64,000 bases of DNA from the NCBI RefSeq assembly GCF_964204645.1, contig NC_134027.1, positions 17,942,560 to 18,006,559 on the forward strand, in the 5' to 3' direction. Below are positions 28,136 to 62,091 of this stretch, in pieces. The stretch comes from Tubulanus polymorphus. Taxonomy: Eukaryota > Animalia > Nemertea. The notes under the pieces were generated by a model. That model saw only the letters and a program-made list of their open reading frames with translations, was not told the DNA's origin and made no database searches. The translations under genes and the position numbers were made by a program. How positions within the stretch are numbered: the stretch's first letter is position 1; each line of letters opens with the position of its first letter.

Positions 28136-28164
28136 TCAAATTTTAATAAAAATATGTATTATAA

Positions 28165-28518: not shown

Positions 28519-28535
28519 GAAAATATGTAAAATAA

Positions 28536-29294: not shown

Positions 29295-29310
29295 TTTTTT
29301 CATTATATAA

Positions 29311-29660: not shown

Positions 29661-29663
29661 TAA

Positions 29664-29885: not shown

Positions 29886-29909
29886 ATGCGTAATTATTTT
29901 ACTAAATAA

Positions 29910-30332: not shown

Positions 30333-30352
30333 TAATTTTTTTTGCTAAATAA

Positions 30353-30778: not shown

Positions 30779-30801
30779 TTTTTTAATTAATTTTTTAATA
30801 A

Positions 30802-32190
30802 ATGGTAGAAAGTTTTCCAAAAGCTTTCCAATATAATAAATCAATTAAATATAATATTCCAGCAATAGATTTTAATAAAGATATTACATATAGAAATGAA
30901 GTTTTAGATTCATTAACTAATTTAGAAATTTATGTTACTGAAACTAATAATTTTAATGCAAAGATGGAAAATATATTTCATGTATATTTAATTAATTTTA
31001 AAAAATTGAAAGATGAAAAACAATGGTTATTAAAATCTAATATGAAGTATTGGCAGAACCAATTAAATTTTGCTGTTTATTGTGCAACAACAGGTTGTGG
31101 AATTAGTTGGAATGATCATTTGAATAATTCTAAATATAAATTAATTCAAAGTTTATTTAGATTTCATACATACTTTCAAATCAGAATAATATTAAATGAA
31201 TTAGAGTGTGCTTTACCAGGATCTAGATATTTTAAAGAATTAGATAATAACATCAATTTATCAAAGTTTTATAAAATTTGCAATGAATTTAATATAGGTA
31301 TAAATAATTCTGATTTTAGAACAAAAATTGGAACAATAAGATCACTTCCTTGCCCTAAAAAGATTGCAGAATATTGTGCACTTCCCATACCATCTAATAG
31401 TTTTTATAATATCTATGATAATAAATTAGGTTATGGTAAAATAGAAACAAAGGATTTAGAAATATTAAATTTCAATAAATTACCGACATTTTATGATCAT
31501 TTAAAACAAGAAAACAATAATGGTTGGGTTTATTTTATTTTAGAAAATAGTGAAGGTTTTACTTAATCAGGTATAGAAAGAATAAATCAATCTATTAGAA
31601 CTAATTTGATATGTATTTTAGGTGCACAAGTTGAAACAAGATCCCCAATAATTGGAAATTTAAATACATCATTTGATACACAGAAACAATTCAAAGTATT
31701 ATTTGAAGATTCCATTCATAATGATAAAAATAGATCGATTCCAGAAAACATTGTAAGATATCAAAATTATTTAGATAAATCACATATTAGATTAAATTAT
31801 TGTATAGGCCCTAATCTATTTATTATTTCTAATGATTTAGTATTAAAGATGGGAAACATAATTGGTTATAATAATCTAATTAAAACTGCAACAATAAATA
31901 ATTCATTAGGATTAAATGATATAAATAAAAAGATTATTACTGCTCCAAAATTAATGGAAGGTGAAAAAAATAAAAAACATATTCAATCAACAGAAACTAA
32001 AACTAATAATATTAAATTAAATAATGATTCTAAAATAAAAGATTACAATACAACAGAAAATATTAGAACTGATAATATTCAACATGAAATAATTAAACTA
32101 AATGATGATAATAAATCCCATGAAAATACTAAATTAGCTTTAACTTGTATAGGAATTGTAATCGGAGGAATATTATATTTTAAATTTTAA
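30802..32190 (+). pseudogene. Conserved Polinton protein (WQNQLNFAVYCATTGCG) with C-terminal TM
   Basis: Two in-frame ORFs split by a TAA at 31564 (AAA in copy 2). Confidence 0.75.
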
Positions 32191-32319
32191 TTTTTTATTA
32201 TGTAAATGGCAGAAGGTGGAGAACATTTTCCATTGGAAAACATGGGAAATAATAATGAAGGATATATTGATGATGAACCGCAACCTAATTTGAAATATAG
32301 CTGCAAAGCAGCGATAACG

Positions 32320-32600
32320 GGTTTTCTGCACATTCTTAGAATCCTGTTCAACGGTGGATTTCAACAAAGCATTTGATAAGGCTCAACATCAGCCATTACT
32401 AAACAGGCTATTAGGAAACAGTATCAATGATAGGTCGCCCAAATGGCTCAGCAGTTATCTCTGAACGGAAACTTGTAACCGAAATAAACGGAACGCCTCA
32501 TCTTGGAATGAGACGGTCTAACTAGTGGAGTCACGCAAAGTAGTATCCTAAGTCGTCTTCTGTTTAATGTCCTGACAAATGACATACACAGTTATCCAAA
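32320..32600 (+). pseudogene. LINE reverse-transcriptase fragment
   Basis: VDFNKAFDK and SGVTQSSILSRLLFN (degenerate GVPQGSILGPLLF). Confidence 0.7.
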
Positions 32601-32664
32601 ATATACCAGACCGAGTAAATTTCCAACACGACCTTAACACACTGTTCGACCAAAAAACTTAATG

Positions 32665-35600
32665 TTCCGACAAAACCACGGGGACAAAACCAAAATTATG
32701 AATTGTCGCGGGTGACAAAACAGAAATATTGAATTGTCACGGGCGACAAAACCAAAATAATGAATTGTCGCGGGCGATAAAACCACAATAATGAATTGTC
32801 GCGGGCGATAAAACCAAAATAATGAATTGTCGCAGACGGAAAAAACAAAATATTGAATTGTTGCGTGCGACAAAACCAAAATAATGAATTGTCGCGGGCG
32901 ACAAAACCAAACTAGGGGTCCAGGGACACCATGCTCACTTGGGAAGTGGTTTCAAATGCTCAACAATCTAACAATTTCAATACATAACGCCCTCTAGTGA
33001 CCATATACAAAAACCGATGACCTTGAAACCCACCACAATCATAGAACATGTGAGCAGCTATGATTTTGTAATTGATTGTGATAACAAAATATGCCTCGTT
33101 ACCAATTTAATATGGAAATACTAAGTTATTCTACTATTCAACGCCCCCTGGTGACCATATGCAAAACCCAGTGACCTTAAAACTCACCACAATCGTAGTA
33201 CATGTCATGAAATACAATTTTGCAATTGATCATAGTAACAAAATATGCCTAGGTACCAATCTAATAAGGAAATACTAAGCCATTCTACTATTCAGCGCCC
33301 CCTGGTGACTATTTGGAATAACTAATGTCCTTAAAAACTCACCACAATCATAGACGATGTCATGAACTACAACTTTGCAATGGATCATGGTAACAAACTA
33401 TGCCTAGGTACCAATCTAATAAGGAAAAACTAAGCTTTTCTACTATTCAACGCCCCCTGGTGACTATATGGAATAACTTATGTCCTTAAAAACTCACCAC
33501 AATCATAGACGATATCATGAACTACAAATTTGCAATTGATCATGGTTACAAAATATGCCTTGGTACAAATATAATATAGCGATACTAAGTTATTGTATTA
33601 TTCAACGCCCCCTGATGGCCACATACAAAAACCAATGACCTTGAAACTCACCAAAATCATAGAACACGTTATGGGCTACAACTTTCCAATTGAATATAGT
33701 AACACAATATGCTTAGGTATCAATTTAATGTGGAAAAACTTTTTCCCACCTACGAATGAGTACTGTTGACACCAAGATGGCCGCCAATTCCATCATAATT
33801 GGCTGATCAAAATACCTGTCCCAGGTATAAAACATCCCTCTCTAAAGAATACCCATCAGCAATTGCAATGAGAAATGGCAAACCAGTAGGAAGCTACAGG
33901 ACCTAGAGTTCTGGCCAAAATTGACATTTTTGGGCACTAAAAAGGTCATAGGACGGCCATCTTGAGTCAGATCGACCCAATTTTCTTATGCTGATGGGCC
34001 TTTGGTAGATTCAAATATAAACGAAAGATCAAGGTAATTGATCAAAGCGTCTTCAAAATTTCCCACGAAAACGTCGAAAATGTTTAAAAAGTGCTGATTT
34101 TGGCAAACAACAATGGCTGCCAGTCGACCATCTTGAATCTGACAGGGCCAGTTTTTGGGCTGACGATGTGTCTAGGGTAGATACATGTATAAACCAAATA
34201 TCAAGACATTACCTTGAAGCGTCTTCAAAACTTCCCGAAATAACTGGATTCCGTCTATGGACGGACGGACGGACGGACGAAAAGTGAACGCAATAGCCCG
34301 CTGGGACTAAAGTCCCAAGTGGACTGAAAAAGAATTGTCGCGGGCGACAAAACCAAACTAATGAATTGTCGCGCGTGATAAAACCAAAATATTGAATTGT
34401 CACGGGCGACAAAACCAAACTAATGAATTGTCGGGGGCGATAAAACCAAACTATGAATTGTCACGGGCGATAAAACAAAAATATTGAATTGTCGCGGGTG
34501 ATAAAACCAAAATATTGAATTGTCGCGGGCAACAAAACCAAACTAATGAATTGTCGCGGGCGATAAAACCAAACTATGAATTGTCGCGGGCGATAAAACA
34601 AAAATATTGAATTGTCACGTGCGACAAAACAAAAATAATGAATTGTCGCGGGCGACAAAACCAAAATAATGAATTGTTGCGGGCGATAAAACCAAAATAA
34701 TGAATTGTCTCGTGCGACAAAACCAAAATAATGAATTATCGCGGGCGATTAAACCAAAATAATGAATTATCGCGGGCAACAAAACCAAAATATTGAATTG
34801 TCGCGGGCAACAAAACCAAAAAAAAATTGTCGCGGACGACAAAAACAAAATATAAAACCAAAATGGTGAATTGTCGCGGGCGACAAAACCAAAATAATGA
34901 ATTGTCGCGGGCTATAAAACCGTAATAATGAATTGTCGCGGGCGATAAAACCATAATAATGAATTGTCTCGGGCGAAAAAACCAAAATAATGAATTATCG
35001 CGGGCGATTAAACCAAAATATTGAATTGTCGCAGGCGATAGAACCAAAATATTGAATTGTCGCGGGCGACAAAACCAAAAAAAACAAATTGTCGCGGGCG
35101 ACAAAAACAAAATATAAAACCAAAATAATGAATTGTCGCGGGCGACAAAACTAAAAAGAAGGATTGTCGCGGGCGACAAAACCAAAATAATGAATTGTCG
35201 CTGGCGATAATACCAAAGTAATGAATTGTCGTGGGCGATAAAACCAAACTAATGAATTGTCGCGGGTGATAAAACCAAAATATTGAATTGTCACGGGCGA
35301 CAAAACCAAACTAATGAATTGTCGGGGGCGTTAAAACCAAACTATGAATTGTCTCGGGCGATTAAACAAAAATATTGAATTGTCGCGGGTGATAAAACCA
35401 AAATATTGATTTGTCGTGGGCGACAAAACCAAACTAATGAATTGTCGCGGGAGATAAAACCAAACTATGAATTGTCGCGGGCGATAAAACAAAAATATTG
35501 AATTGTCGCGGGCGATAAAACCAAAATAATGAATTGTCTCGGGCGACAAAAACAAAATATTGAATTGTCACGTGCGACAAAACCAAAATAATGAATTGTC

Positions 35601-36515
35601 GCGGGCGACAAAACCAAAATAATGAATTGTTGCGGGCGATAAAACCAAAATAATGAATTGTCTCGTGCAACAAAACCAAAATAATATATTATCGCGGGCG
35701 ATTAAACCAAAATAATGAATTATCGTGGGCGACAAAACCAAAATATTGAATTGTCGCGGGCAACAAAACAGAAAAAACAAAATTGTCGCGGACGACAAAA
35801 ACAAAATATAAAACCAAAATAATGAATTGTCTCGGGCGACAAAACCAAAATATTGAACTGTCGCGGGCGACAAAACCAAAATAATGAATTGTTGCTGGAG
35901 ATAAAACCAAAGTAACGAATTGCCGCGGGCGACAAAACCAAAATATTGAATTGTCGCGGGCGACAAAACCAAACTAATGAATTGTCGCGGGCGACAAAAC
36001 CAAAAAAAGAATTGTCGGGGCGACAAAACCAAAATAATGAATTGTCGCGGGCGATAAAACCAAAATAATGAATTGTCGCAGGCGATAAAACCAAAATAAT
36101 GAATTGTCGCGGGCGACAAAACCAAAATGGTGAATTGTCGCGGGCGACAAAACCAAAATGGTGAATTGTCGCGGGCGACAAAACCAAAATAATGAATTTT
36201 CTCGGGTGACAAAACCAAAATAATGAATTATCGCGGGCGATAAAACCAAAATATTGAATTGTCGCAGGCGATGAAACCAAAATATTGAATTGTCGCGGGC
36301 GACAAAACCAAAATATAAAACCAAAATAATGAATTGTTGCGGGCGACAAAACTAAAGAGAAGGATTGTCGCGGGCGACAAAACCAAAATAATGAATTGTC
36401 GCTGGCGATTAAACCAAAGTAATGAATTGTCGTGGGCGATAAAACCAAAATATTGAATTTTTCACGGGCGACAAAACCAAATTATTGAATTGTCGCGGGC
36501 GACAAAATCAAAATC
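32665..36515. repeat. 31-bp satellite (AAACCAAAATAATGAATTGTCGCGGGCGACA)n, interrupted at 32911-34328
   Basis: Dozens of contiguous units; each has a TTGTCGC-GG-GCGACAA palindrome; no spacers. Confidence 0.97.
32911..34328 (-). mobile_element. Helentron-associated (HINE-like) element with ~157-bp internal tandem repeats
   Basis: About five repeats containing CAACGCCCCCTGGTGAC..ACTCACCACAATC (32985-33730); (GGAC)n; terminal GGGACT/AGTCCC hairpin; satellite resumes on both sides. Confidence 0.6.
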
Positions 36516-37995: not shown

Positions 37996-39294
37996 GTCGA
38001 ATTCGAAAGTGGTTGTCGTCGTATTGTTATTTCTAGAGACCAGCAGTATGTTTTGCTACTGTTTCTGAATGGCCTTGACATGATGGAAATATATTACTCC
38101 TAAATAGGTTACACATCTGGATCACAGCACCTCACTTGCCGCAGTGCGTAATTTTGACTGCATAGTAATGCTAATACATAAACTTTTTTACTACTTGACT
38201 CAAAGCTTGACGCGAATCATCTGAACAGTACTGCGTTTGAAAACGAATAGAAAATGTTTGCGAGAAGCACCTGCAAATAAGTTATGATAAGATTAAATCT
38301 ATGGTTAATCGATGCTTAAAAAAACAATTAAATCACAGGCAAGATGACTAACAACCGTCTTTCAACCAATCAGCGCGATGCCAATTAATTAAATCATTAA
38401 ACGCATTAGGCTCCTTATATTTGTAATCATTTGTCGTTCTTTAAACTTGGCCACTTTTGTTTCAGAAAACCGCGTACTAGACCAGTGGTCACCAAGGCAT
38501 TAAAAAAGTTTTGAAAATTCGATGGTAACGATTTGTCCGTCAAAAAACTGTTTCGTTAATATTTCAAGTTTTTTTAAACTCTTGTACAGAATTCACTATA
38601 TGAAAAGTGTTCATAGGAATTGAAATTCGGTGTGATATCAGTCACCTGTTACCCCTTTTTCATTGTCAGTTCTTTATTGCACTATCATGCGCTCTTCTAA
38701 AATAGAAAAGAACATGTGTGTTTCGTTATAAACAAGGTTAGATTCCAAACGCACATGAAATATCACACAATATACACATCTAGCATTTTCTCTAACTAGG
38801 CCCTTTCCAAATGGCAATTGTTTAGTTTTTTAACGGCCGACATTCAGAAGCACCTAAAAACCAGTGCTAGCGCTTGAGATTTTCAGTGTAGGTCACATCT
38901 CACATCGACTCGGCTCGCAGTCGGTTCGTTTAATGGGAACACATCTGGTTGACACTAGTTTCACAGTTGACGAAATCAGAAAACTTTTTTCAAATGCCTT
39001 TGATAACATCTTAAACATAGTATTCTTCTTGATTACATTTCGTTGATTCCATAGATATGTTTTTATGAAAATTGCTCCAGTTATAACGGATTCAAACATA
39101 CATGTGAAATCAATATTTTCAAAATATTCAATTTTCTCCGCTTTTGAAGAAATTCTGACACAATATCATCTCCACTCGACACATGATTTTACTTCGGCGC
39201 CTTTAAGGGAGTGTCCCTTAAAGTTGAGTTCTTACTTAGTCAAACAAGGAGATATGCCTGATTCCTTTTTAAAATTTAGATTTCGACAGATATC

Positions 39295-39670
39295 AGTAAT
39301 TGGGAAAGTGGGCTTTCATACGAGAGGACGAGACACCACTCATCACCACAAGTAATAATTCAATTGAGTATGAGACACCACTCATCACAGCTAGGCTCTA
39401 GTGAGAACGGACGATTGCTCTGTGGTACACATATACAGTGAGTGCGCGTAACAACAGCTGCGCGTGGATAGATCGATACAGTGAGTCTCTACTGAGAACG
39501 GTTATTAACGCGTGTGCTATTACTGTAGTACAGTGATTGCGTGTCAACTGTGCCCAGATAAATAGATGCTGTGAGGCTTGGGTGAGAACGGTTAATAGCG
39601 TGTTTGTTATATACAGGGGGAAGTAATCCCCACTCATCACCACAAGTAATTTTTGTTCCTAATAAATGGG
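39295..39670 (+). repeat. Left TIR region (interrupted)
   Basis: 39295-39357 and 39630-39670 both match the reverse complement of parts of 54385-54475. Confidence 0.85.
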
Positions 39671-42600
39671 GGAGAATGAACAGCAGCCAGAAAACAATAA
39701 TGTTAATAAAACCAATATTATTGCCAATATTGTAAAAAAATACGTCGATACATCTAATAAAACACGACATGAAAAAACTGCAAATCATATAAAAAATGTA
39801 ATAGATTTTGAAACTCCAGAAAATTCCAATGAAAGAAAAGAAAGATTAGAAAATATGAATGTGGACGAAATAAAATGTGAAGTTTGTAATGAATTTAAAG
39901 TAAAAAGGAATTATAATATAATCTCGAATCACAAAAACACCATCAAAATTTGAGTAATAATGTTTTAGGAAAAGATTATTTCGATGATAAACCTCAAAAA
40001 GTAAAAAAACCAACTTCAAAAACTAAATCCATTTCAAATAAACCTTACATGGAAAATGTTAGAAATTATATTGATACACTAGAAATAAAAGATACAATTG
40101 AAATTTTAGAAACATTACATAGTAAAATTGGTCCTGCAGCTATCATATTTAGATTTTTTAAAGGTACAACAATAGAAGATTATAGTATATTTAATGAAAT
40201 AATAAAAAAATACTAGATTTGATAACAGATGTTGAATATCCAAAAATTAGTATCTCTGGGAAAGTAAGTTTTATAAAGTCAGAAGAAAAAATGGATTATA
40301 ATATTCAAACACACTCTGAAGAAATAATTTGAAAAACACAAATAAAAGAGAAATTAGAAAAAATATTTAATGAATTTAAACGTCATATTGAAGAAAGATA
40401 TTTTGAGGGTTCTGGCTTAACATTGAATGAAATTATATATTTAGATTTAAATGTTTACAATACAAAAAGGAATAAAACATCAAAAAGTAATAAAATGTTT
40501 AAAAATGATTCAAAATTTACAACAGAAAAGGATATTAAAGCATCATCTTATATTAAATTACCATTTACAACAAAAGCAGTAATAAATGTTCAAAATGAAG
40601 ATAATAAATGTTTTCTTTGGTCAATTATTAGTTGTTTACACCCAACAGAAGATATGACGCATAGTTTTAGAATAACAAATTACCGGAAATATGAAACATT
40701 ATATAAAATTGATCAATATCCAGTAACTATAAAAATGATTCCTAAAATAGAAAAAGTTAATAATTTAAAAATAAATGTATTTGAATTAATGCAATTACCA
40801 AAGACAAAAGGTGAAAATATTAAAAATCATACATTGAAAGCTTTATATTTAACAGAATATTATGATGATGAAAATGCTATAGATTTGTTATATTACAAAA
40901 AAGATGAAAATGAACATTATATGTGGTTAAAACAAATTGATTTATTCTTTAGAACAGAAAGTGATCATCATAAAATTTATCCATGTAGAAAATATTTATC
41001 TAAATTTATGACTGAGAATACATTATTAAAACATAAAGAATTATGTGATAATAAAGATTTTGTAAATTAATAATGCCAACAGAAAAAGATTATACATTGA
41101 AATTTACAAATCATAAATTTAAGAATATTGTTCCATTTGTAATTTATGGGGATTTTGAATCGTTGAATAAAGAATTAACTGATCAAGATAGAAAAGAAAT
41201 ATATAACAAAAAGCAATTATTAAAATCAATGGATAAAGGAAATGAATTAAATGAAGACACAACACAAGACCCGCCAATTATAAATACAATTAAAAAAGTT
41301 CATCAAAGAGCTGCTGCTTATGGAATTTATATAAAATCAAATTATCCCGAATTATATGAAAGTCAATATATTTCTTTTAGAGGTGAAGGTGTAGTTAATG
41401 ATTTTTGTAACAAATTGATTGAATTAGAAAGTGATTTTGCAAAATTATTAAACAAAAATAAAAGAATATTTATGACAATAGAAGATGAAATTGATTTTAA
41501 TTATGCAACTCATTGTTGTTATTGTGAAAAACGTTTTTATTCATTTGATAAAAAAGTTAGAGATCATGATCATTTAAATTCAAAATATCGTGGAGCTGCT
41601 CATGAAGATTGCAATTTACAAGCTAAGAAAGTTAATTTCGTACCAATATTATTTCATAATTTATCAGGCTATGATACCCATCTATTTATAAAAAAATTAT
41701 CGGGAAAATTGGGCGCAATTAATCAAGAAATAGAAAAATATAATGCTATGAATGGTGTAAATGTAAGAAAATATGATTTTAAACTATTAGCTAAAACATC
41801 TGAAAATTATATTTCATTTCAATTTGGTTGCATTAGATTTTTAGATTCTTATAGATTTCTAGCAAGTTCAGTAGATAATTTATCAAAAAGTTTAGTTGAT
41901 AATGATTTTGTTATAACTCGATATTATTATCCAAATGAACAAGATTTTAAATTATTGAGATATAAAGGCGCAATTCCTTATTCATTTTATAAAACACAAT
42001 GATTTTAATGTAACAGAATTATTAAAAGATCAATTTTATGATCAATTAAAAGAGGAGTATGTGAAAGACGAAGTGTTTAATAGAACATTAAATATTTGGA
42101 ACCATTTTAAGATGAAAAATCATGGTGAATTAGTTGATTTATATTTAAAATCAGATGTTATGATATTGGCTGACATATTTGAAAAATTTAGAGAAGTTAA
42201 TTTGAATCATTTTAATGTTGATCCTTGTTATTGCTACTCTAGTCCTGGTTTAACCTGGCAATGTGGTTTAAAATATACAAATGTAGAATTAGATTTATTG
42301 AAAGAACCAGATATGGTTTTATTATTTGAAAAATCAATTAGAGGTGGAATTAGTGGTGTTATGGGAGATAGATATTTTAAAGCAAATGATGAATATAAAT
42401 TATTATATATTGACGCCAATAATTTATATGGTTGGGCAATGATGCAACCTCAACCATATAAAAATTTTATATTAACAGAAGTTGAAAATGATGATAAAAC
42501 TAATTGGGAAAGCGCAATTACGAGTTTAGAAGATGAAGCACCAATTGGTTATTTCTTTGTAGTTGATTTAGAATATCCTGAAAATATAAAGTTTAAAACA

Positions 42601-44720
42601 AGAAACTTACCTTATTGCCCAGAACATTTAACTGTAGATGATAGTTATTTAAGTGAATACCAGAAGAAAATAAAACCGAAAGATCATGTTTTTACAGAAA
42701 AATTAATTCTTACTCAAAATAATAAATACAATTATATTGTTCATTATAGAATGTTAAAATTTTATCTAAAACAAGGAATGAAATTAAAGAAAGTACATAG
42801 ATATATTGAATTTAATCAATCGAAGTGGTTAGAAAAATATATAGATTTTAATACTCAACAGAGAACCATATCAAAAACAGATTTTGAAAAAGATTTCTTC
42901 AAATTAATGAACAATAGTTTTTATGGTAAAACATGTGAAAATATTAGAAATAGAAATGATATTGAATTAGTAAATAATTCTGAAAGATTAAGACATTTAC
43001 AATCAAGTCCTAGACATTTAGGAAATAAAAGATTTGAAGATTATTTAACAGCAGTTAAATTGAAAAGAACGTCAATGAAATTTAATAAACCTACATTCAT
43101 TGGTTCAACTGTTTTAGAAGTATCAAAATTATTAATGTATGATTTTTATTATAATGTTTTACAACCACTTTTTGGGGAAAAGCATATTGAAACATTATAT
43201 TTTGATTCTGTAACAGCTGACACCCCAATATTATTAAAATGTAATGATAAAATATTGATAAGAAGAATTTCAGAAATAATTCCAAAACAAAATGAATGTT
43301 TATTTCATATGGTGAAAAAGAATTAATACAAATAAATGGATTAATGGATGTTTGGACAAGAAATGGATGGAAAAAATTAAAGAATATTATTAGGCATAAA
43401 ACAAATAAGAAAATCTATAGAGTTAGAACTAAATTAAGGTTTGTAGATGTTACAGAAGATCATAGTTTAATTAAACGAAATGGCGATGAAATAAAACCAA
43501 CTGATATAAAAATTGGAGATGAATTATTACATAAAAGATTTTTCCAAAGAATGAATCATATGTCATTTGATGAAATTATTGATAATATTTATAATATAGA
43601 ACCCGAAACATTAGAAGAAAAAGAATATTTTATCAAAGGATTTTTCATGGGTGATAGTTCAGCAGGTGTGTATGTTTGGGGTAATAAATATTGTTGGTAT
43701 TTATGCAATCAAGACTTAAAATTATTAGAAAGAATTAAGAAATTCTGTGAAGAAGTTTATCCAAATAAAACATTTAAAATCATGGATGTTATGAAATCAA
43801 CAGCAGTTTATAGAATACTTGTAAATAATCCTAAAGATTTTGCTATAAAATATAATGACGAATTCTATATTCATGCAATAGTGAAAAGTAATACTTCAAC
43901 TAAAGAAAAGATAGTTCCAGATTATGTATTGAATGCAAAAAATAATTTAAGAAAATGGTTCTTCATTGGATTCTACGCAGCAGATGGTACTAAAAGTTTC
44001 AAAAATCGCAAAACAATATCTTTAGCTCAAAAAGGAAAAGTTGCTATATCAGGATTGAATATATTATGCAATTCATTAGGTTTTAATATGAATATTGGAT
44101 TGATTAAATCTAAACCAAATTGCTTTAATTTAAGCCATGTAGAAAATGAGTTAACAGAAGAAGTTAAAGATTTATTTGAAATATATAACCCAACAGATTA
44201 TGTTTATGATTTATCAACTGAAGATGGTACATTTAACTGTGGATTTCCATTAATAGCCAAAAATACTGACGCCTACATACTAAAAATCAAGACAAATGAC
44301 ATAACAAAAGACTTAAAAACATTAAAACATCATTTTGATTTTAGCAATTATCCCAAAGATCATGAACTATTTAGCGATGATAATAAAAAGATTCCTGGTA
44401 AGTTTAAAGATGAATTAGGGGGTGATGAAATGATTGAATTTGTTGGGATAAGAAGTAAAATGTATAGTTATAGAACAAAAGATCATGAAGATATAAAGTT
44501 AAAAGGAATAACAAAACATGTGGTTGATAAACATATAGAATTTCAAGATTATATAAAGTGTTTATATAACTCAATTGTAATGAAACACAAAATGAATTGT
44601 TTAAGATCAGAAGATCACGAGATGTACATTAATGAAGTTGAAAAAACTAGTTTGAATCCATTCGATGATAAAAGGCATATTTTAGATGATGGTATAAAAA
44701 CATTACCTTATGGCCATTAA
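39666..44720 (+). pseudogene. polB: pPolB, intein-containing allele
   Basis: N-terminal Zn fingers, NEDNKCFLW..HYMW, IYGDFES, RDHDH, FHNLSGYD, YIDANNLYGWAM, KLMNNSFYGKT, YFD|intein|TDA, DDKR; several stops and frameshifts. Confidence 0.95.
43207..44264 (+). mobile_element. Intein with LAGLIDADG homing endonuclease in pPolB motif C
   Basis: Block A SVTADTPILL; block B VDVTEDHSL; GFFMGD and GFYAADG; block F YVYDLSTEDGTF; end LIAKN then +1 Thr; absent from copy 1; 1058 nt with one frameshift near 43296. Confidence 0.95.
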
Positions 44721-46048
44721 AACATAAAATCAATATCATCATACTCGAAATCACTATTGGCTTCTTCATTTAAATTTAATTGTTCTTGTATAATTTGTTT
44801 AGGTTCTTCTTCCATTTCATTTTTCTTATTTAAATAACGTGTTATATTGTGCCACATTTCATCTCGCTCTCTTTGTTTCTTTTTGTTTGTTAATTCATCA
44901 AATGGAATTATAATATCTATATTTAAATAATTTACAATCTTATTTAAAAAGAATTCATAATTAATTGAATCTGTTATTCTATTTTCCAAATGATACATTA
45001 ATATTTGTTTGAATATTTTTTTTATATTTTCCATATCTTCTTCTGTTAATTTAGGTTTTTCATAATAATCGTTAAATAATAAATATAAATACATTTTCTT
45101 TTGTTTTGTGTTAAATGTTGATGGAATAATTGTTTTTATAATATCTTTTTTAGTTATTTCACCATTTTTATTTTCTACCATTTTCATTTTTTCAAGCCAT
45201 TGCATATATTCTGGTGTATGATCTTCTATAGAAAATATTTCAAAAATTTCATCTAGATAATTTAATTTTGGATCTATGAGAAAATTTCTAGTTTTTTCTT
45301 CACCCCATAAATTCTTTCGCCATCCACAATCAACACAAAATAACACAGTACCTTCTTGTCTTAAGGTCGCGTAATTACATTGTGGGCATTTTTGTTTATA
45401 ATTTATTGGTAATAGATCTTCATTAAGCTCTTGGTATTTTCATACGTTTTCTTTATGTTTTATTATTCTATTATGTAGATTTGAATTACTTGTTGTAATA
45501 ATCAATTTACAATATTTACAATAATATGTTTTTCTTGTTAATTCATTATATTGTTTTTCTAACTTTTCAACTGTTTCTTTATTATCTGGTAACGTTTTCT
45601 CATATTTTATTTTTTCTAATATATTATTTTTTCTTTCATTGAATTCAGTTTCAAATTTATTAGAAATTTTATCTATATGTGCTTTACGAAATTGATGATT
45701 CTCCCAATCTTCTATATTTTCAGGGCTATATTTTATTCGACAAGGCTTACAGAAATGATCTTTTATATTATCCTTATCATAGAATAAGAAAGGTCTTTTC
45801 CAAATAACATCAGGTTCAACTTCCACAGAATTACTATTACTTTCGTTACTATCAACATTAGCCGTTGCGCCATTAATTTTACACTTCTCTGAATGTTTTT
45901 TAACATAATTTCTTGAGAATAATTTATTACATTTTGGACAGTTTAGTTTAGGGGGTTTATAATTTTCATCATGTTTTTTCATATGTCGAGCCATATTACT
46001 TTTTCTCAGAAGTTCACCACAAATTTCGCATGGTATCTTCTCATCCAT
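44717..46048 (-). pseudogene. Multi-zinc-finger protein fused to a poxvirus VLTF3-like late transcription factor domain
   Basis: ORFs 45440-46048 and 44717-45346 are in frame across one TGA; four Zn-finger motifs, then CPQC..CVDCG, then SINYEFFLNKI..KKKQRERDEMWHNI. Confidence 0.7.
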
Positions 46049-46116
46049 TTATTAAGGAAAAATTTTATTAAAATTAATTTTTAGTGATGAGCGGTAATTT
46101 TTTTATGTTATAAATA

Positions 46117-46874
46117 ATGGTAGAATTAAAAGAATACAGAATATTTGTAGATTCTAGAAAACTTACAAATTATAAATCTCATAATTTACTAGAACAATTA
46201 GATAGAGAATTTAAAAATTGTGTAGATTTAAAATTAGTTAATATAAGTTTATGTAATTCTTTTTATAATATAACGGATAAAACTATTGAAGATAATACTT
46301 TTTTAATTCATATTGGAAATGTAGATAAATGGTTTCATATAATTTTAAAACCAGGATTATATAATTTAGAAACATTAGCTCAAGAAATTAATCGAAGAGC
46401 ACGGTTGAAAATTAGAAGAGATGATAAATTTTTAATTAGATTTATAAAAAGTGATAGCACAAATAAAATTAAAATACAGGTATATGATGAAAGTCAACAT
46501 GCATTTATGGTAAAAAAACCATTAGCTAAATTGCTAGGATTTGCACCAGATACTGTTATAGGAAACGTAGATGGTAATTCAAATATAATACCTTTTACGC
46601 ACTTTTATATTTTTTGCAATTTAATCGATCCTACAAAAACATTTGAAGGAACTAAAGATACAATTTGTAATTCTAGTATATTAAATATTTTACCGCTAAA
46701 AAATGTTAAAAAATTTGGACTGGAATAAATTATAATTTAACAGAATGTGATTTTAAACCATGCATTCCTGAATTTAATAATTTTAGATTAGAAATAAGAA
46801 ATCACAATGGATATTTAATTGATTTGAATAACTTTCCTGTGATATATGAATTAGTTTTAAGATGTAGAGAGTAA
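46117..46874 (+). pseudogene. Minor capsid protein (penton), frameshifted
   Basis: Homologue of 28536-29294; frameshift near 46720. Confidence 0.7.
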
Positions 46875-46906
46875 TTTTTTCATTATATAACTGTTGGGCC
46901 GAGCAT

Positions 46907-47236
46907 ATGTTTGGATTTGATTTTAAACGTGAGAAAGAAATGAAAATTAACATTAATGATGTAATTACACATATCAAAAATATTACATTTTCTAATGAAA
47001 CATCATTTGAGTATGAAACAACAATAGATAAAGAAACTTTAAATGTAGAAAAGATTACTAATAAAATAAAGATTAGAGAATCTTTATTTTATGAATTAGA
47101 TGAAGATTTTATCATCGATGATATTAAAAAAATAATAATTGAAATATATACAAATGAAACTAGTAATGAAATAAATGTTGAATTAATCATCACTAAGATA
47201 ACTAAATATTTTGAAGATAGTAATTTTTTTGATTAA
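46907..47236 (+). CDS. Polinton hypothetical protein
   Basis: Homologue of 29311; native start deleted. Confidence 0.55.
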   Translation: MFGFDFKREKEMKININDVITHIKNITFSNETSFEYETTIDKETLNVEKITNKIKIRESLFYELDEDFIIDDIKKIIIEIYTNETSNEINVELIITKITKYFEDSNFFD

Positions 47237-47239
47237 TAA

Positions 47240-47440
47240 ATGAGTGATAATAAGTGGATAATAACTGGATTATATAATGGCGCCTTACTATCAGTTGGAA
47301 CTGTTGGTTATTCAATGGTATTAAAAAAAGTATTTAAAATGGGAAGTGTTAATGTTGATAGATTTGATATAAATGAAATTTTCAAAATTAACATTAGCAG
47401 TTACTTTATCTAATTTAACTATTGATTATTTGGATATAAA
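47240..47440 (+). pseudogene. Small hydrophobic Polinton protein
   Basis: Homologue of 29664-29885 with a frameshift and 3' deletion. Confidence 0.65.
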
Positions 47441-47463
47441 TACATAATTATTTTACTAAATAA

Positions 47464-47880
47464 ATGGCTTCTGCAGTTATAACTATTATAGGATCGGCAA
47501 TTGTTAACGCTTTAGCATTTACTGGTGGTGGTTATTTATTCAAGCATATTGATGGTTCATTAACAGAACAAAAAAGACATAACTTAGCATTAGAGAAATA
47601 TAATAAAGCAGCAGAAGAATGTAGAGAAAAGAGACAAAACTATATGGATTACATCAATAAAGAATTATATGACCAGAAGATTTCACATAGAGATTTTCAA
47701 TCAGTTGATGATGCAATGAGTTTATATAACGCGGTAACCAAGAATGAAAAATCACATCTATACAAACCTAAATTATCAGATTATTATACCCCAAGTAAAG
47801 AACAACAGAAATATGAAATAATGTGGATTTTAGGTGGAACTGTTATTGTTATATTTGTAGCGTATAAGTTTACTAATTAG
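47464..47880 (+). CDS. Polinton membrane protein (NALAFTGG)
   Basis: Intact homologue of 29910. Confidence 0.75.
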   Translation: MASAVITIIGSAIVNALAFTGGGYLFKHIDGSLTEQKRHNLALEKYNKAAEECREKRQNYMDYINKELYDQKISHRDFQSVDDAMSLYNAVTKNEKSHLYKPKLSDYYTPSKEQQKYEIMWILGGTVIVIFVAYKFTN

Positions 47881-47900
47881 TAATTTTTTTTGCTAAATAA

Positions 47901-48293
47901 ATGGATGATAATATTGATATTATTCCTCATGGTATAAATAAAACTAAATTAAAAATATATTTAGAAAAACAAATATTAGAATTTGAAAGTGACTTAAAGA
48001 TAAAAAGGAAAAAATATTTAAAAAGTAAAATTATATATTATTTGATTATTAGTGGTTCGGTTACAATTAGTTCTGTAATAACATTTCTAGCAATATTTTC
48101 ACCATTAACACCTTTGGCTATATCAATTGGTGTGTTAGGATTAAGTTCAAGTGTTTTAACTGGTATAAGTCCAAAATTAAATATAAAAAGTAATAAAGAA
48201 AAAATTAAAACTAATATAAAAGAAATTAATAAATTAAAGAATACACTAGATTATATAATAAGTTTAAATGGTCATATAACAGTTGAAGAATAA
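47901..48293 (+). CDS. Polinton two-TM protein
   Basis: Homologue of 30353; CAA>TAA near the end. Confidence 0.7.
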   Translation: MDDNIDIIPHGINKTKLKIYLEKQILEFESDLKIKRKKYLKSKIIYYLIISGSVTISSVITFLAIFSPLTPLAISIGVLGLSSSVLTGISPKLNIKSNKEKIKTNIKEINKLKNTLDYIISLNGHITVEE

Positions 48294-48353
48294 GATAAAT
48301 TATTAAAAGAATTAATAAATTATTTATTTTTTTATTTTTTTTTTTTTTTATAA

Positions 48354-49649
48354 ATGGTAGATAGTTTTCCAAAAGCTTTCCAATATAATAAATCAATTAA
48401 ATATAATATTCCAGCAGTAGATTTTAATAAAGATATTTCATATAGAAATGAAGTTTTAAATTCATTAATTGATTTATATATTTATGTTACTGAAAGCAAT
48501 AATTTTCATGTTAAGATGGAAAATATATTCAATGTTTATGAAATTAATTTTAAAAATTTAAATGAGGCAAAACAATGGTTATTAAAATCTAATATGAAGT
48601 ATTGGCAGAACCAATTAAATTTTGCTGTTTATTGCGCTACAACAGGATGCGGAATAAGTTGGAATGATCATTTAAATAAACCAAGTTTACCATTGATGTT
48701 ATCACTTTTTAGATTTCATACATATTTTCAAATAAAATTAATATTAGATGAATTAGAATGTCCTTTACCAGGTTCAAAATTTTTCTAAGTTTTATAAAAT
48801 ATGTAATGAATTTAATATTAATTCAAATAAAGATTTTAGAGCAAAAATTGGAACAATGGGTGGATAAGGAATATTGTATACTAAAGAATTTCGAAAAATA
48901 ATGACAAATTCAGATATAAGAACACTAAATTGGAATGAATTACCAAAATATTATAATAATATACAACAACAAAACAATAATGGTTGGGTTAATTTCATTT
49001 TAGAAAATAGTGAAGGTTTTACTAAAGCTGGTATATAAAGAATAAATCAATCAATTAGAACTTATTTGATAGTATTTTAGGCGCGCAAGTTGAAACAAGA
49101 TCCCCAATAATTGGAAATGATAACACTTCATTCGATGCGCAGAAACAATTCAAAGTTTTATTTGAAGATTCCATTCATAATGATAAAAATAGATCGATTC
49201 CAGAAAACATTGTAAGATATCAAAATTATTTAGATAAATCACATATTAGATCAAATTATTGTATAGGCCCTAATCTATTTATTATTTCTAATGATTTAGT
49301 ATTAAAGATGGGAAACATAATTGGTTATAATAATCTAATTAAAACTGCAACAATAAATAATTCATTTGGATTAAATGATATAAATAAAAAGATTATCACT
49401 GCTCCAAAATTAATGGAAGGTGAAAAAAATAAAAAACATATTCAATCAACAGAAACTAAAACTAAGAATATTAAATTAAATAATGATTCTAAAATAAAAG
49501 ATTACAATACGACAGAAAATATTAAAACTGATAATATTCAACATGATATAATTAAAACTGATAATGATAATAAATTCCATGAAAATACTAAATTAGCTTT
49601 AACTTGTACAGGAATTGTTATAGGAGGAATATTATATTTTAAATTTTAA
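48354..49649 (+). pseudogene. Conserved Polinton protein (CATTGCG)
   Basis: Homologue of 30802-32190 with a deletion, stops and frameshifts. Confidence 0.75.
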
Positions 49650-49665
49650 TTTTTTTATTATATGA

Positions 49666-50259
49666 ATGAATGTAGAAGGTGGGGAAGATTATGAAATGGA
49701 AGGCATGGGAAATAATGATGATGCCAATACTAACGATGATGATTATATGACTGCTGATACTAATATTGATAATGATAATGATATAACATATAATTCTAAT
49801 TTAGCAGAAAGTGGTTCTAAAGCCCCATCAACTGAGGATTATATTAGAAGAACTAGATCGAGAATAAATCCTGAAAATGAAAATCAAGGTTTATCGAGTC
49901 GAGATTTAGAAAATAAAGAATTTGTATATAAGTTCCAACGTGCATTTGAAAGATCTGGATATAATATAAATTACAGAGGTGCCAGATTTTTAGTAGAAGA
50001 TTTAAAATATTTAGATGGTGAATATTATTATAAATTGAAAGATGATTATTATATTAATATCACTAATCAAAGGACAAGACTACCTAAAATATTAGCGGAA
50101 TCAACTTTGAGTGATTTAGGTCTAGATAAAATTAAGAGAATAAGTATTAGTAATGAAATAACTGATGTTACACAAGAGAGAGATAATAATATAAGAGTAT
50201 TTAGTCAAAGAATTGATGACTTATTTAAAATAATCGATGATAATCCAGAAACAGAAACA
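49666..50259 (+). pseudogene. N-terminus of a large acidic/coiled-coil Polinton protein
   Basis: Homologous to 59270-59787; ends at a deletion junction. Confidence 0.7.
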
Positions 50260-51020
50260 ACTTTGAATTGATAAATAATAATGCGCCTTTATATAAATAT
50301 CCAATTCAAGAAGATATTATATTTGAAATAACATTTGCTCCTGTTAATGAAATTGTATTATCTAGCGTTGTTAAAGATATGGGTTATAAATTATCGATTG
50401 TATGTTTAGAATATGACACAGTAACTGATGAAAATATTGCTAGCACAATTCAAACTCAATACAATCAAGGATTTTCATTATTATATGATTATATTGATAA
50501 ATTTAAAACTGTAACTATTAATGCAAATGATGAAATAATTAATGAGAATATTAACTTCCCAAGAAGATCTATTAAAGGTATATTAATATTTTTTACCATT
50601 GCAACATATTCTAATGGTGCAATAAAGGTAGATAATTATTATAATCCTGAAATAACAAAAGTAGAAATAACTATCGAAGGAATAGCAAATAAAATATTTT
50701 GTCAAGGAATGAGAATGATAGATCAGTGGCCAGAAATTAGAAAACATTTTATGAATGAAAAAGTAAAATCATTTGAAAATTGTAATATTAATCAAATTGA
50801 TTATTATACCGGCAATAAATATGCATTATGGTTAGATTTTAGAACAACAGAGGATAATTCATTACATGGTTCTGGGAAAAAACTACAGAACACTAAAGAT
50901 GGAATACAATTATTTATGAAAAAGAAAAAAGTAAGCTTAAATTTTAAAGTGCACATTTATATTATATCTGACGCATAATTAAATATTGTAAATTCACAAT
51001 TAGATAGTATTCAATATTAG
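50260..51020 (+). pseudogene. Major capsid protein, C-terminal part
   Basis: Matches 61298-62060 of the copy 3 MCP. Confidence 0.75.
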
Positions 51021-51050
51021 AAATATAAAGTTAAAATTAACGATATATAA

Positions 51051-52184
51051 ATGGGTGGTAAAAAAACTCCTAATACTAAAGAACAATATTTAAGAAATTT
51101 ATATTACAACCCTGAGAGTTCGGTTGCTTATTCTTCTACTAAAAATATATGGCGTCAAGTAAAACAAGATAAATTAGATAAGATAATCCCACAAAATTTA
51201 GTTAAATATAAAGATATAAATGAATTTATATTAGAACAATCAACATACACAACACATAAAAAAAATTGTTAGAAAATATAAAACTCGTAAAACTATGGTA
51301 AGTTATGTAGATCAACAGTGGCAAGGAGATTTAATTGATATGAAAAATGTTAAGAAAGATAATGATGATTATTGGTGGATATTGAATATAATTGATATTT
51401 TTAGTCGTTATGTATTATGTTTCCCACTTTATAGAAAAGATGCTGTACAAACATCAAATGTTTTAAGAAAATTTCTTTCGGATGATAAACTAAAACCAGA
51501 AAAAATACAATTTGATGATGGAAAAGAGTTTGATAATTCACTTGTTCATGAACTCTTAGATAATCATAATATTAAATATTTTTCAACAAAATCGGATAAA
51601 AAGCAGCAGTTGTTGAACGATTTAATAGAACATTAAGAACAAGAATGTGGAAATATTTTACAGCAAATAGTACTTTTAAATGGATTGATGTTTTACCAAA
51701 ATTGATAAAAGGTTATGATAATTCTTATCATTCTTCTATTGGAATGAAACCTATTGATGCTATAAAACCTGAAAATGCTGAAATTGTTTGGAATAATTTG
51801 TATGGGGCATTTCTTGTAGATGATTTTGGTGAACCTAAATTTAAAGTTGGTCAAAATGTTAGAATTTCTAAGTATAAAAAGATATTTGACAAAGGATACG
51901 ATCGAAATTTTACTAGAGAAATATATAAAATAAAAAAGGTTATAACAACAAAACCGTATGTCTATAAATTAGAAGATTTAGATGGTGAAGAAGTTGATGG
52001 CTACTTTTACGAAGAAGTATTGAGTTTAACTACTGAAAATCTAGAACATAAAATTGAATATAAAATTGAAAAAGTATTAAAAACAAAAATTATTAAAAGA
52101 AAATAATATTCTTTAGTAAAATGGGTTGGATGGCCAGATAAATTTAATGAATGGATATTATCAAGTAAAATTAAAAATATATAA
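51051..52184 (+). pseudogene. Retroviral-like (RVE) integrase with C-terminal chromodomain
   Basis: WQGDLIDM, IDIFSRY, DDGKEF, VERFNRT, YHSSIGMKP, FKVGQNVRI, LVKWVGWPDKFNEW; two frameshifts and one stop. Confidence 0.93.
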
Positions 52185-52793
52185 ATGAATAAGGAATTAT
52201 TCGTATTTGAGCCTCATAATATGTTAATTTCTGGTGTAACAAATTGTGGAAAACCTTATTTTATATTAAATTTATTAGAAACTGTTTATGAAAACTATTT
52301 TGATAATATAGTATTATTTTGTCCAACATATGAATTTAATCAAACTTATGATAGAAATATTACTAGAAATAATAAATTTATTATATTAGATCCTAAAACA
52401 GTAAAAGAAAATTTAGATAATTGTATTAAAATAGCGATTGATATTTATAAAGGATCAAATACATTATTCATTATAGATGATTGTGCTAATCTACATGATT
52501 CAAAAGTTAGAGAGAGTGAGTTATGCTATTTAGCTTTTTCTGGCAGACATTTTGGGATAACAACATGGGTTTTAAATCAAAAATATAATTCAATTGTTAA
52601 AGACTTTAGAGAAAACATTAGATTTCTAGTTTTATTCTACAATAAAGATAGAAAATCGATGAAAAATGCACTTGAGGAAAATGATATTATTCCACATGAT
52701 TTACATAATGAATATATGGATAAGTTGAAAAATATTAAAAGATCAAAATTACTATTTAGATTACAACACCCATTTAAATATGAATTTATTTAA
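52185..52793 (+). CDS. A32-like DNA packaging ATPase
   Basis: Walker A GVTNCGKP (GKT in copy 3), Walker B FIIDD, SGRH motif. Confidence 0.9.
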   Translation: MNKELFVFEPHNMLISGVTNCGKPYFILNLLETVYENYFDNIVLFCPTYEFNQTYDRNITRNNKFIILDPKTVKENLDNCIKIAIDIYKGSNTLFIIDDCANLHDSKVRESELCYLAFSGRHFGITTWVLNQKYNSIVKDFRENIRFLVLFYNKDRKSMKNALEENDIIPHDLHNEYMDKLKNIKRSKLLFRLQHPFKYEFI

Positions 52794-52976
52794 ATTCAAC
52801 TAGCTTGTTAATCTAGTTGAATTCTAGTTACATTCTAGTTGAATTCTAGTTATTAGTAGTTGAAACAAAAATCAAATAGATTTAACAAGAAATAAACAAA
52901 AACAACAATATTTCAACTAGCTTGTTAATCTAGTTGAATTCTAGCCCTAGTTACATTCTAGTTGAATTCTAGTTGC
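52794..52976. repeat. Intergenic CTAGTTGAATT / CTAGTTACATT repeats in two duplicated blocks
   Basis: TTCAACTAGCTTGTTAATCTAGTTGAATTCTAG at ~52795 and ~52912. Confidence 0.85.
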
Positions 52977-53006
52977 AACATCACAACTAATTTTTTTGTT
53001 ATATAA

Positions 53007-53520
53007 ATGGTAGGTGAAAAGAAAATAAAATCTAAAAATGGTGATGTTCCAATTGAAAAAAACTTTAGATGATATAGGAATAACAGAAAACAAATTAATT
53101 CCAGATGATGGTGCTTTAAATAATGTTACAACAAATAATAATTATGAATATTATCTTTACTGTAAACATCAATTAGAAATATTAATAGCATCTGGAAAAT
53201 GTAACAATTTTGTCGGTAAAAATTTAACTTATAATGAATTAGATACAATGAAATCAGATGAAATTATTAGATTATTTAAGATTCATGAAGCCGCGAGAAC
53301 AGCTAGAATTAATGACGCGATATCAGAAAATGTAGTAAAAGGTTATAGTAAATTATGTAATTATATACTACCAATTGAAGATGAAAATAGATTATATTCC
53401 GATTTAAAAAATGATTATTTAGTTATGACTGAATTAAATAAATGGATTGGATATTTATCATTTCAATTAGGTGGATTTATGACATTATTATCAACTGGGT
53501 TATAACATTTTCAAATATTG
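53007..53520 (+). pseudogene. Polinton hypothetical protein
   Basis: TAAATG start at 53007, frameshift into ORF 53038-53505. Confidence 0.6.
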
Positions 53521-53544
53521 AAAGTAAAAATATTTCTATAATAA

Positions 53545-53913
53545 ATGAGCGAGGTGGAAGAAGTGAAGGAATTAACTGTGAAGAAAAAACCGAGATCACA
53601 GAAACAAATTGAATGGTCTCGGCAATTAGGAAGTAAATCACAAGAATATAAAAAAGCTGTAAAAGAAAAAATAAGTAATAAAAATGTTAATAAAAATAGT
53701 GAAAATATTGTTATTTCTACTCCTTCTAATGATAGAATATTTGATAAATGTCTATATTTTACAGTTGGATTTGTAATTGTATTCATTTTGATTGGGTGTA
53801 ATTGGTATAAGAAATCAAATAAAATTCATGATATTAATAATTCTGAAACAACTGCTATCAAAAATGAAAATAATTCTGAAATTCCAAAATTGACAATTAA
53901 AAAAATGGATTAA
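53545..53913 (+). CDS. Polinton single-TM protein
   Basis: 122 aa, basic N-terminus, one hydrophobic helix, TAAATG start. Confidence 0.65.
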   Translation: MSEVEEVKELTVKKKPRSQKQIEWSRQLGSKSQEYKKAVKEKISNKNVNKNSENIVISTPSNDRIFDKCLYFTVGFVIVFILIGCNWYKKSNKIHDINNSETTAIKNENNSEIPKLTIKKMD

Positions 53914-54064
53914 TATTTTAGAAAAAAAGCAAAAAAAAATAATTTTTTCTAATTAATTGAATATCTCACTACTTTTGTCTATCTATGCGGAGCAATTAAA
54001 TTGTCCAGATAAGTCATTTCGGATTCTAGATATTCATTATTTTTATTAATTTATTTTTTTAAAT

Positions 54065-54390
54065 TTAATCAACAATTTCTAAATCATGATGGCCATCTTC
54101 ATTTTTTCCATGGTAGATTATTTTAAATCCTTCTAAATCTTTTAATTCCTCTGTACTCAATGAAACCCATTTATCAGGTAAAAATACTTTAAATTCTCGT
54201 GATGTACTAACATTACAGTAGCTTAAATTAGCTGATACTTTCTCTCCATATTTAGTTTTTATCTTTTCTAATTTCAATATTTTATGTTCAATTTCTTTTG
54301 TAACATCAACTAACTTTTTTATTTCAAATTGTTTTTTGCTGGTTTTATTCTGTTATTTATTGTTGCAAAGAATGCTTTTCTATCTCCCAT
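54065..54390 (-). pseudogene. Homologue of the 28165 protein, starting at the right TIR
   Basis: KTKYGEKV..FLPD..YHGKNEDGHH; ATG at 54390 in TAAATG, disrupted near the 5' end. Confidence 0.7.
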
Positions 54391-54475
54391 TTATAAGGAA
54401 AACAAATTACTTGTGGTGATGAGTGGTGTCTAGTCCTCTCGTCCTCTGGTATGAAAGCCCACTTTCCCAATTACT
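54385..54475 (-). repeat. Right TIR of Polinton copy 2
   Basis: Reverse complement of the left end; ends in ACT. Confidence 0.92.
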
Positions 54476-54939
54476 GATATCATCAAATTACTAGAAAGGG
54501 ACAGCAGCGTTCGGTCATCCACGAAAAATACCTAAAATGCAGTCCTAGGGTTATGGAAAAACAGGACACGAAACATACAGAAAAATCCTTTGTTTGGTTG
54601 ACTGAAATTATTATTGAACTCTTAAATAGCGACATTCAGAGAAACAAAAACATAAGAATATAATCTCGCCCACCCGTTAAAAAACATGACGTAATGATAG
54701 GAGGCCATGTGTCATCTTTAATTGAAATCACATTATATTCATTCTCATGCGAGGATGGGTCTCCAAATTCATAGGATTAGGAGAATAATGGTTTGAATGA
54801 TGAATACAACTGATAAAGCGCCAATTTCACTGATTCTTGCATATAAATGCTCAAAGGCGCTTTACAGTAATCGAGTTAACAGGTGCGTTTTTAGGAGTCT
54901 TTTAAATTTGAATTCAAATCGGGTGTTCATGACGACTAT

Positions 54940-60787: not shown

Positions 60788-60810
60788 TAATTAATTTTTT
60801 TGTTAAATAA

Positions 60811-62060: not shown

Positions 62061-62091
62061 ATTTTAACTTTAATAAAAATTTATATAATAA

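Follow-up and report, generated by a model that had tools for sequence, protein, structure and literature searches.

A VLTF3-like gene fused to a zinc-finger array in a decayed Polinton of the nemertean Tubulanus polymorphus, and TAAATG motifs at the gene starts of the element

We analysed 64,000 nucleotides of the Tubulanus polymorphus genome (NCBI RefSeq assembly GCF_964204645.1, contig NC_134027.1, positions 17,942,560 to 18,006,559, forward strand), here called the window, which harbours a Polinton/Maverick element. Inside the element, a minus-strand gene (46048-44717; 443 codons plus a terminal TAA on translation) combines four zinc fingers with a domain resembling VLTF3, a late transcription factor of poxviruses. 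In the window this gene is a pseudogene within a decayed element. Its parts are listed by window position and by residue of the protein read through the internal stop; P numbers denote proteins, L numbers loci, and A numbers other than poxvirus A2 alignments.
44717..46048, minus strand: zinc-finger array plus VLTF3 gene, a pseudogene in the window copy (translation; alignments with P0002 and P0003).
45971..46030, minus strand: zinc finger 1 (C2H2, residues 7-26; zf-C2H2 E 2e-4 on the N-terminal half, under the gathering score; kept in P0002, P0003 and P0009).
45881..45940, minus strand: zinc finger 2 (C2HC, residues 37-56; homolog comparison).
45677..45751, minus strand: zinc finger 3 (long-spaced C2H2, residues 100-124; zf-C2H2_jaz and zf-met match the same finger of P0003).
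45455..45520, minus strand: zinc finger 4 (U1/matrin type, residues 177-198; zf-U1 E 4.5e-5, 23.6 bits, cut-off 22).
45440..45442, minus strand: internal TGA, essentially private to the window copy (read and contig comparison).
45326..45388, minus strand: C4 zinc ribbon (residues 221-241), spaced as in poxvirus A2/VLTF3 (alignments A3 and A4).
44810..45277, minus strand: helical VLTF3 domain (about residues 258-413; PF04947, structure model, profile scores).
46046..46076, minus strand: putative VLTF3 promoter with A-rich core, spacer and TAAATG, similar in L001 and L002 (sequence comparison).

The sole internal stop of the gene is the TGA at codon 203. Shuffled DNA of the gene contained 45.5 stops on average and at least 24 (2000 trials) versus the one observed, the plus-strand frame over 44717-46048 is full of stops, and GC content at third codon positions is equal on both sides of the TGA (0.153 and 0.154). 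The read-through protein aligned across the break with P0002 (697 amino acids (aa); 42% identity over 372 columns, E 4e-86) and with P0003 (446 aa; 30% over 441 columns, E 8e-38), both of which encode the ribbon and the full set of four fingers in a single open frame; therefore, the N- and C-terminal halves are one gene. Translation and these alignments agree with the original prediction that two open reading frames (ORFs) form one in-frame gene of ~443 codons with a single TGA. The four finger motifs (C7/C10/H22/H26, C37/C40/H52/C56, C100/C103/H118/H124 and C177/C180/H192/H198), the CxxC..CxxCG ribbon (C221/C224/C238/C241-G) and the C-terminal motif that it quoted were all located in the read-through protein.

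The stop was compared with reads of a second individual carrying the same species label (run X6, 1934 million letters, mean depth about 252 on the gene). Inside the TGA codon, 287 of the 295 X6 reads differ from the window, and three other runs from two samples (X1, X2, X3) do so across the whole of their listed contig depth. The TGA is therefore essentially private to the window copy and, since reads from another individual lack it, results from the decay of a dead copy and not from recoding. The other damage points the same way: the polymerase gene is frameshifted several times, the integrase gene is split and the 5' half of the capsid-like gene is gone, and the window copy is thus dead. The position of the break, after the finger array and ahead of the ribbon, would suit a recoded TGA (read-through or selenocysteine) or two separate genes, but the reads and contigs largely refute this, homologs are continuous across the break, the frame downstream of the TGA has no TAAATG start and the neighbouring genes are broken as well, leaving the idea a negligible probability. 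Depth in X6 peaked at ~690 on the adjoining penton-like gene and at ~607 near the end of the polymerase. At 46116, 337 reads depart from the reference; hence very roughly one third to one half of the related elements have VLTF3 in this slot. Element copy number is uncalibrated, and would be of the order of 100 assuming a genome of ~1 Gb.

The homology of the gene to VLTF3 was supported by four methods. The Pfam model Pox_VLTF3 (PF04947) was matched marginally by a trimmed 197-aa query (26.5 bits, cut-off 25). With the C-terminal half as query, phmmer returned six matches from 1.84 billion proteins, among them P0002, P0003, canarypox VLTF3 (E 6.6e-4) and the unnamed Pfam-positive VLTF3 P0005 (E 6e-5); the sixth was an unrelated multi-ribbon protein. 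In the ESM Atlas, VLTF3 clusters made up 29 of the 30 matches (top value 0.95; 215 of 256 features in common). The AlphaFold model, built on an alignment of 31 rows, had a predicted local distance difference test score (pLDDT) of 82.5, and its first Foldseek match was cowpox VLTF3 (E 5.5e-7, template modelling score (TM) 0.59); named VLTF3 accounted for eight of the 15 Foldseek matches at E<=0.001. In alignment A3 (eight rows) all four ribbon cysteines are invariant, in A4 (31 rows) nearly so, and they align with poxvirus A2.

Some results weigh against this identification. The Pfam VLTF3 model was matched neither by the full read-through protein nor by its 240-aa C-terminal half, and P0002-P0004 and all four homolog fragments also went unmatched; consequently, the Pfam evidence alone is marginal, and the expected Pox_VLTF3 match was obtained with the 197-aa query and not with the full protein. 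The Atlas recognition value of 2006 lies under the guide of 2300, and 26 of the 31 rows behind the AlphaFold model are poxvirus-like. Folding from the single sequence was unusable (pLDDT 40.8), the ribbon did not match the Pfam model A2L_zn_ribbon (PF08792), and the word-index protein search gave nothing with the read-through protein, nor with the C-terminal half against longer proteins. Locus searches of viral contigs with the C-terminal half, P0002, alignment A2, the ATPase and P0004 as queries gave no loci. Neither the PDB sequence search nor Foldseek against PDB (E<=0.001) gave a significant match. The top solved-structure match was yeast TFIIB (Z 6.4, root-mean-square deviation 3.9, 94 residues aligned; none reached Z>=8), and human TFIIB, archaeal TFB and cyclins recurred among these matches. 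TFIIB-like factors are characterised by a zinc ribbon and cyclin folds; at Z 6.4 the TFIIB match falls under the noise level of the tool and is a lead only.

The VLTF3 domain scored 37.3 bits against a chordopoxvirus-type profile (n=23) versus 13.9 against a profile of other viral VLTF3-like proteins (n=74, drawn from 120 viral loci by a sequence motif). The corresponding values were 28.3 versus -0.1 for the L001 VLTF3 and 23.3 versus 4.0 for the L002 VLTF3, and cross-scores between the two sets reached maxima of 18.3 and 15.4. Against a poxvirus-type assignment, the profiles contain no entomopox-, asfar-, irido-, ego- or mriyavirus sequences, and the contrast may profit from a common AT-rich composition. 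In an unrooted tree of 37 rows (five query-side, 12 of the 23 poxvirus and 20 of the 74 other proteins), the three Polinton-type proteins grouped together (90/85) on very long branches. The phylogeny proposed in the original prediction thus united the Polinton-type proteins, and we claim no donor for VLTF3, since the tree is rootless and its branches very long. P0004 and P0005 are unnamed divergent VLTF3-like proteins of sequencing assemblies. P0004 has no finger array, and its grouping with the Polinton proteins is weak (85/67). P0005 shows a strong likeness to poxvirus proteins (PF04947 and PF08792), and its source may be an undescribed poxvirus.

Like poxvirus VLTF3/A2 (PF04947 and PF08792), the Polinton protein has a C4 ribbon of matching spacing with a helical domain directly after it, shares the invariant residues C, C, C, C, N, L, F, Y and W, and finds there its best fold match. 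Identity is only 20-26%, however, and the Polinton protein has ~215 extra N-terminal residues with the four fingers, and an acidic tail. Vaccinia A2 is an intermediate gene required for late transcription (PMC11980589; this and the other papers cited below are quoted from the parts of their text available to us). The Polinton gene, by contrast, is carried on an integrated 15-kb element in which no RNA polymerase was detected. The main features of the element are the following.
39289..54481: decayed Polinton/Maverick of ~15 kb whose terminal inverted repeats are imperfect.
39666..44720, plus strand: what we take, partly from motifs, to be a protein-primed-type DNA polymerase B with several frameshifts (identity to the intact L001 polymerase of 1336 aa, 53-83%).
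43207..44264, plus strand: intein with LAGLIDADG endonuclease, frameshifted (Intein_splicing E 3.5e-6, LAGLIDADG_3 E 1e-5, PI-PkoII E 3.9e-7).
46117..46728, plus strand: probable penton gene (minor capsid), in divergent orientation to VLTF3 (weak: sister copy versus an L044 ORF, E 0.016).
50244..51054, plus strand: likely major capsid gene, 3' half (5' half deleted, fuller copy at 60811; sister comparison; the copy at 60811 matches Capsid_N weakly, E 0.011).
51051..52181, plus strand: retroviral-type integrase, frameshifted (rve E 2.4e-11).
52185..52793, plus strand: A32-type packaging ATPase (Pox_A32 E 4.2e-12).

The genes expected of a Polinton are represented by the polymerase (from homology and motifs), the retroviral integrase and the packaging ATPase. 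The polymerase ORFs had no Pfam polymerase match, which is why their label rests on relatives and on motifs; further searches gave no confirmation of the major capsid label. No maturation protease was found in the window with the L004 and L044 proteases as queries, and the element has internal deletions. The inverted repeats are imperfect (39289-39356 and 39630-39685 match 54373-54481), the left end looks rearranged and no target-site duplication was identified. The repeats flanking the element suggest an invertebrate host. The polymerase and VLTF3 genes are convergent and their stop codons overlap; L001 has the same tail-to-tail order with both genes intact. The intein interrupts the catalytic D-T-D motif of the polymerase, and the sister copy and L001 are without it. 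Inteins are unusual in animal nuclear DNA. A word search of three Polinton papers found no mention of them.

In a sister copy of the element elsewhere in the window, the slot between the polymerase and the penton-like gene holds a 117-aa gene (28165-28518) instead of VLTF3, and VLTF3 is accessory because this slot can hold a different gene. A relative of the 117-aa gene lies at the right end of the Polinton (54065-54390, minus strand), and probably also in L044. The statement that VLTF3 is not a core Polinton gene needs a qualification: VLTF3 in animal Polintons is already known, from corals (PMC11131425, which cites Krupovic & Koonin 2016). What is new is the finger fusion, the poxvirus-type VLTF3 domain and, at the gene starts, TAAATG, which in poxviruses is the initiator of post-replicative genes.

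TAAATG is present at 11 of the 13 homology-defined surviving gene starts of the element (two genes with deleted starts are omitted from this count), versus 44 of 623 background ATGs (7%; binomial p 1.6e-11). Both remaining starts match TAAATG exactly in the sister copy. A blind first-ATG rule gave just 8 of 24 starts in the element, a low value because the rule includes gene fragments and antisense frames. The motif also occurred at all seven intact starts of the sister copy (28165-30802), at 2/2 starts in L001, 1/1 in L002 and 6/6 in L004, and at 5 of 14 in L044, which has three TAAAATG besides. It was absent from the starts of the virophage locus L003 (0/9), L005 (0/1) and L045 (0/1), and was found at 12 of 147 starts in loci around other VLTF3s and at 242 of the 587 ORFs of 36 poxvirus loci, whose genomes are not independent. 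L004 and L044, two further Polinton-type contigs, use TAAATG and have no detected VLTF3; therefore, this promoter type spans a wider clade. L044 comes from a bacterial metagenome-assembled genome record, where it is probably misbinned.

The motif follows the stop of the preceding gene by 16-39 nt in all eight pairs measured, and it also heads terminal and divergent genes without an upstream gene (39666, 46048, 54390 and two divergent pairs in L004). Upstream of the starts, positions -11 to -7 form a T-rich tract, preceded by a TAA (about -16 to -14); at VLTF3 and a few other genes an A-rich core takes the place of this tract (by eye). Poxvirus late promoters have TAAAT(G) over the start codon with T residues ~10 nt upstream, and poxvirus intermediate promoters have TAAA and an A-rich upstream part (PMC11980589, PMC5294985, PMC12722222). 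Because of that A-rich part, the A-rich core recalls the intermediate class. No earlier report of TAAATG promoters in Polintons was found in the open-access papers that were searched. The inverted-repeat ends 39630-39665 and 54391-54426 each lead straight into a TAAATG start, so that each Polinton terminus appears to bear an inward-facing promoter. Two other explanations of ATAAATG were ruled out: a polyadenylation signal, given that terminal and divergent genes carry the motif and that about four in ten read TATAAATG, and a splice acceptor, given that no AG lies ahead of the ATG.

The gene might also be captured cargo with another job, such as RNA or DNA binding in replication of the element, TAAATG being an unrelated translation or compaction signal. 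Finger 4 weakly resembles the N-terminal finger of the polymerases of these elements (E 0.007 against the N-terminus of the L001 polymerase), fingers 3-4 belong to the U1/JAZ type, and the motif sets an in-frame stop directly ahead of the ATG. The stop of the upstream gene itself, however, lies 16-39 nt earlier, the motif is also present at terminal and divergent genes, and homologs with an overall identity of 30-42% preserve the ribbon and the VLTF3 core. We regard captured cargo as improbable.

The reading that we favour, at a probability of about 0.55, is a virophage-like Polinton that brings its own late factor and is transcribed by the poxvirus-type RNA polymerase of a co-infecting virus. 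From the fusion gene, its family, its retained position next to the polymerase, the many stop-free copies and the start motif, which were observed directly, we infer every functional step of this mechanism. TAAATG would act as transcription initiator, and the mRNAs would receive 5' poly(A) leaders. The RNA polymerase would be viral and supplied by the helper, as the element encodes none that was detected; among its genes, Pfam recognised neither a poxvirus RNA polymerase subunit nor VLTF2. The VLTF3 of the Polinton is predicted to be the late initiation factor for the promoters of the element, and its ribbon and helical domain, judging from the weak fold hint, might work like a TFIIB-type factor. 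The four added fingers would bind nucleic acid and bias the late machinery of the helper towards element DNA, and machinery biased in this way would also compete with the helper. TAAATG elements that lack VLTF3 would rely on the VLTF3 of the helper or on supply in trans.

The original prediction had suggested that the factor recruits, or competes for, the transcription machinery of a helper virus. As written this was unsupported. Nucleocytoviricots without RNA polymerase retain VLTF3, so that the gene by itself implies no helper. The TAAATG starts and the poxvirus-type VLTF3 domain now give the helper idea independent support; it is still unproven. A promoter match to the late motif of a large DNA virus, which is typical of virophage-like elements, is present in the form of TAAATG. 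Several points count against helper transcription. Neither a helper virus nor a transcript or 5' end was observed; no RNA run was listed as containing the stretch, which says nothing about expression. The RNA-polymerase-less nucleocytoviricots that keep VLTF3 are thought to use the nucleus (PMC11253617, bioRxiv 2026.08.29.747986). Motif and factor are uncoupled, because the sister copy, L004 and L044 have TAAATG without a detected VLTF3. All 17 scored starts read ATAAATG; this sequence shares letters with AATAAA or TATAAA, places T at -3, and may have a translational or host-promoter role. On the coding strands AATAAA occurred 33 times in the window (36 expected) and 46 times in L001 (44 expected) and is not depleted; this result counts in favour of helper transcription, although the test was made without a nuclear-gene control.

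The main rival is an autonomous nuclear switch, in which VLTF3 would recruit host RNA polymerase II to TAAATG-type late promoters of the element, the fingers would bind DNA and no helper would be needed. Mriyaviruses and ariadnaviruses retain VLTF3 without RNA polymerase, the element integrates into nuclear DNA through its integrase, and TFIIB was, weakly, the top solved-structure match. On the other hand, elements without a detected VLTF3 share the TAAATG starts, and the VLTF3 and polymerase genes are themselves TAAATG-started, so that nothing is left to launch the cascade. Moreover, the 16-39-nt spacers and the failure to avoid AATAAA argue against such a switch, and the RNA-polymerase-less viruses also keep VLTF2 (and the ariadnaviruses TFIIB), neither of which was identified here by Pfam. 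We consider an autonomous switch unlikely.

Helper transcription could also be combined with defence: the finger-extended VLTF3 would then be a dominant-negative decoy that jams late transcription of the helper and protects the host. The promoter evidence is the same as for the favoured reading, the gene is accessory and interchangeable with the 117-aa gene, and the added domains could sequester nucleic acid or partners. Yet none of the residues held in common with VLTF3 of poxviruses (four Cys, N, L, F, Y, W) has been lost, and a block of late transcription would also hit the TAAATG genes of the element itself, which makes a decoy quite unlikely. Tentatively, the favoured reading may be extended to a whole animal Polinton lineage, whose members would be endogenous virophages of undiscovered poxvirus-type viruses, with two promoter classes (A-rich for VLTF3 and a few others, T-rich for particle genes) and a captured late factor whose four fingers pull the helper polymerase onto Polinton DNA. 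This wider proposal is possible, with the odds somewhat against it; if true, the many copies per genome could serve as inherited antiviral defence.

The question addressed is how animal Polintons are transcribed, as autonomous nuclear viruses or as parasites of a larger virus. The combination of a poxvirus-type late factor and poxvirus-type promoters makes this mode of transcription directly testable, and predicts an undiscovered poxvirus-like virus in the host. The natural finger-VLTF3 fusion also offers a way into the study of VLTF3, which is one of the core proteins of giant viruses and has no close relative of solved structure.

Known systems share parts of this picture. As in the polintoviruses of stony corals (PMC11131425) and in the MELD viruses and Zephyr Polinton-like viruses (PLVs; PMC8502044; bioRxiv 2026.06.19.733378), VLTF3 is a patchy accessory gene of Polinton-type elements, animal genomes included. 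In contrast to our analysis, the available parts of those accounts mention no finger fusion, promoter analysis or poxvirus-type assignment. The finger-VLTF3 fusion went unmentioned in the related literature that was compared, in which no dedicated search was made. Entomopoxvirus-associated PLVs are also Polinton-like elements, and have been proposed as hyperparasites of poxviruses (PMC11296320); unlike the Polinton described here, they were found in the occlusion bodies of a known helper, and they encode a protease, which the L004 and L044 queries did not find in the window. A word search of the available text of that paper gave no matches to promoter, VLTF or TAAAT. Mavirus-type endogenous virophages are likewise integrated, and their promoters match a giant-virus late motif, which has been read as helper-driven reactivation (bioRxiv 2026.07.28.741278). 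They differ in their protist hosts, Mimiviridae-type helper and virophage capsid, and the virophage locus L003 lacks TAAATG starts. The yeast virus-like elements (pGKL) are protein-primed linear DNAs. [quoted passage not shown] Unlike the Polinton, they are cytoplasmic plasmids with their own RNA polymerase; the Polinton has an integrase and a packaging ATPase, and no polymerase subunit was detected.

Further Polinton fragments are present in the window at 18400-21300, 24000-32300 and 59100-64000, so that the region is a Polinton graveyard; these fragments include a short inverted pair of finger-plus-unknown ORFs. A 31-bp tandem satellite at 32600-36500 gives spurious minus-strand ORFs. YqaJ-like recombinase and DDE-transposase helix-turn-helix genes were seen at 12009-13343 and 21600-23900, and some fragments there look like a DIRS-type retroelement.

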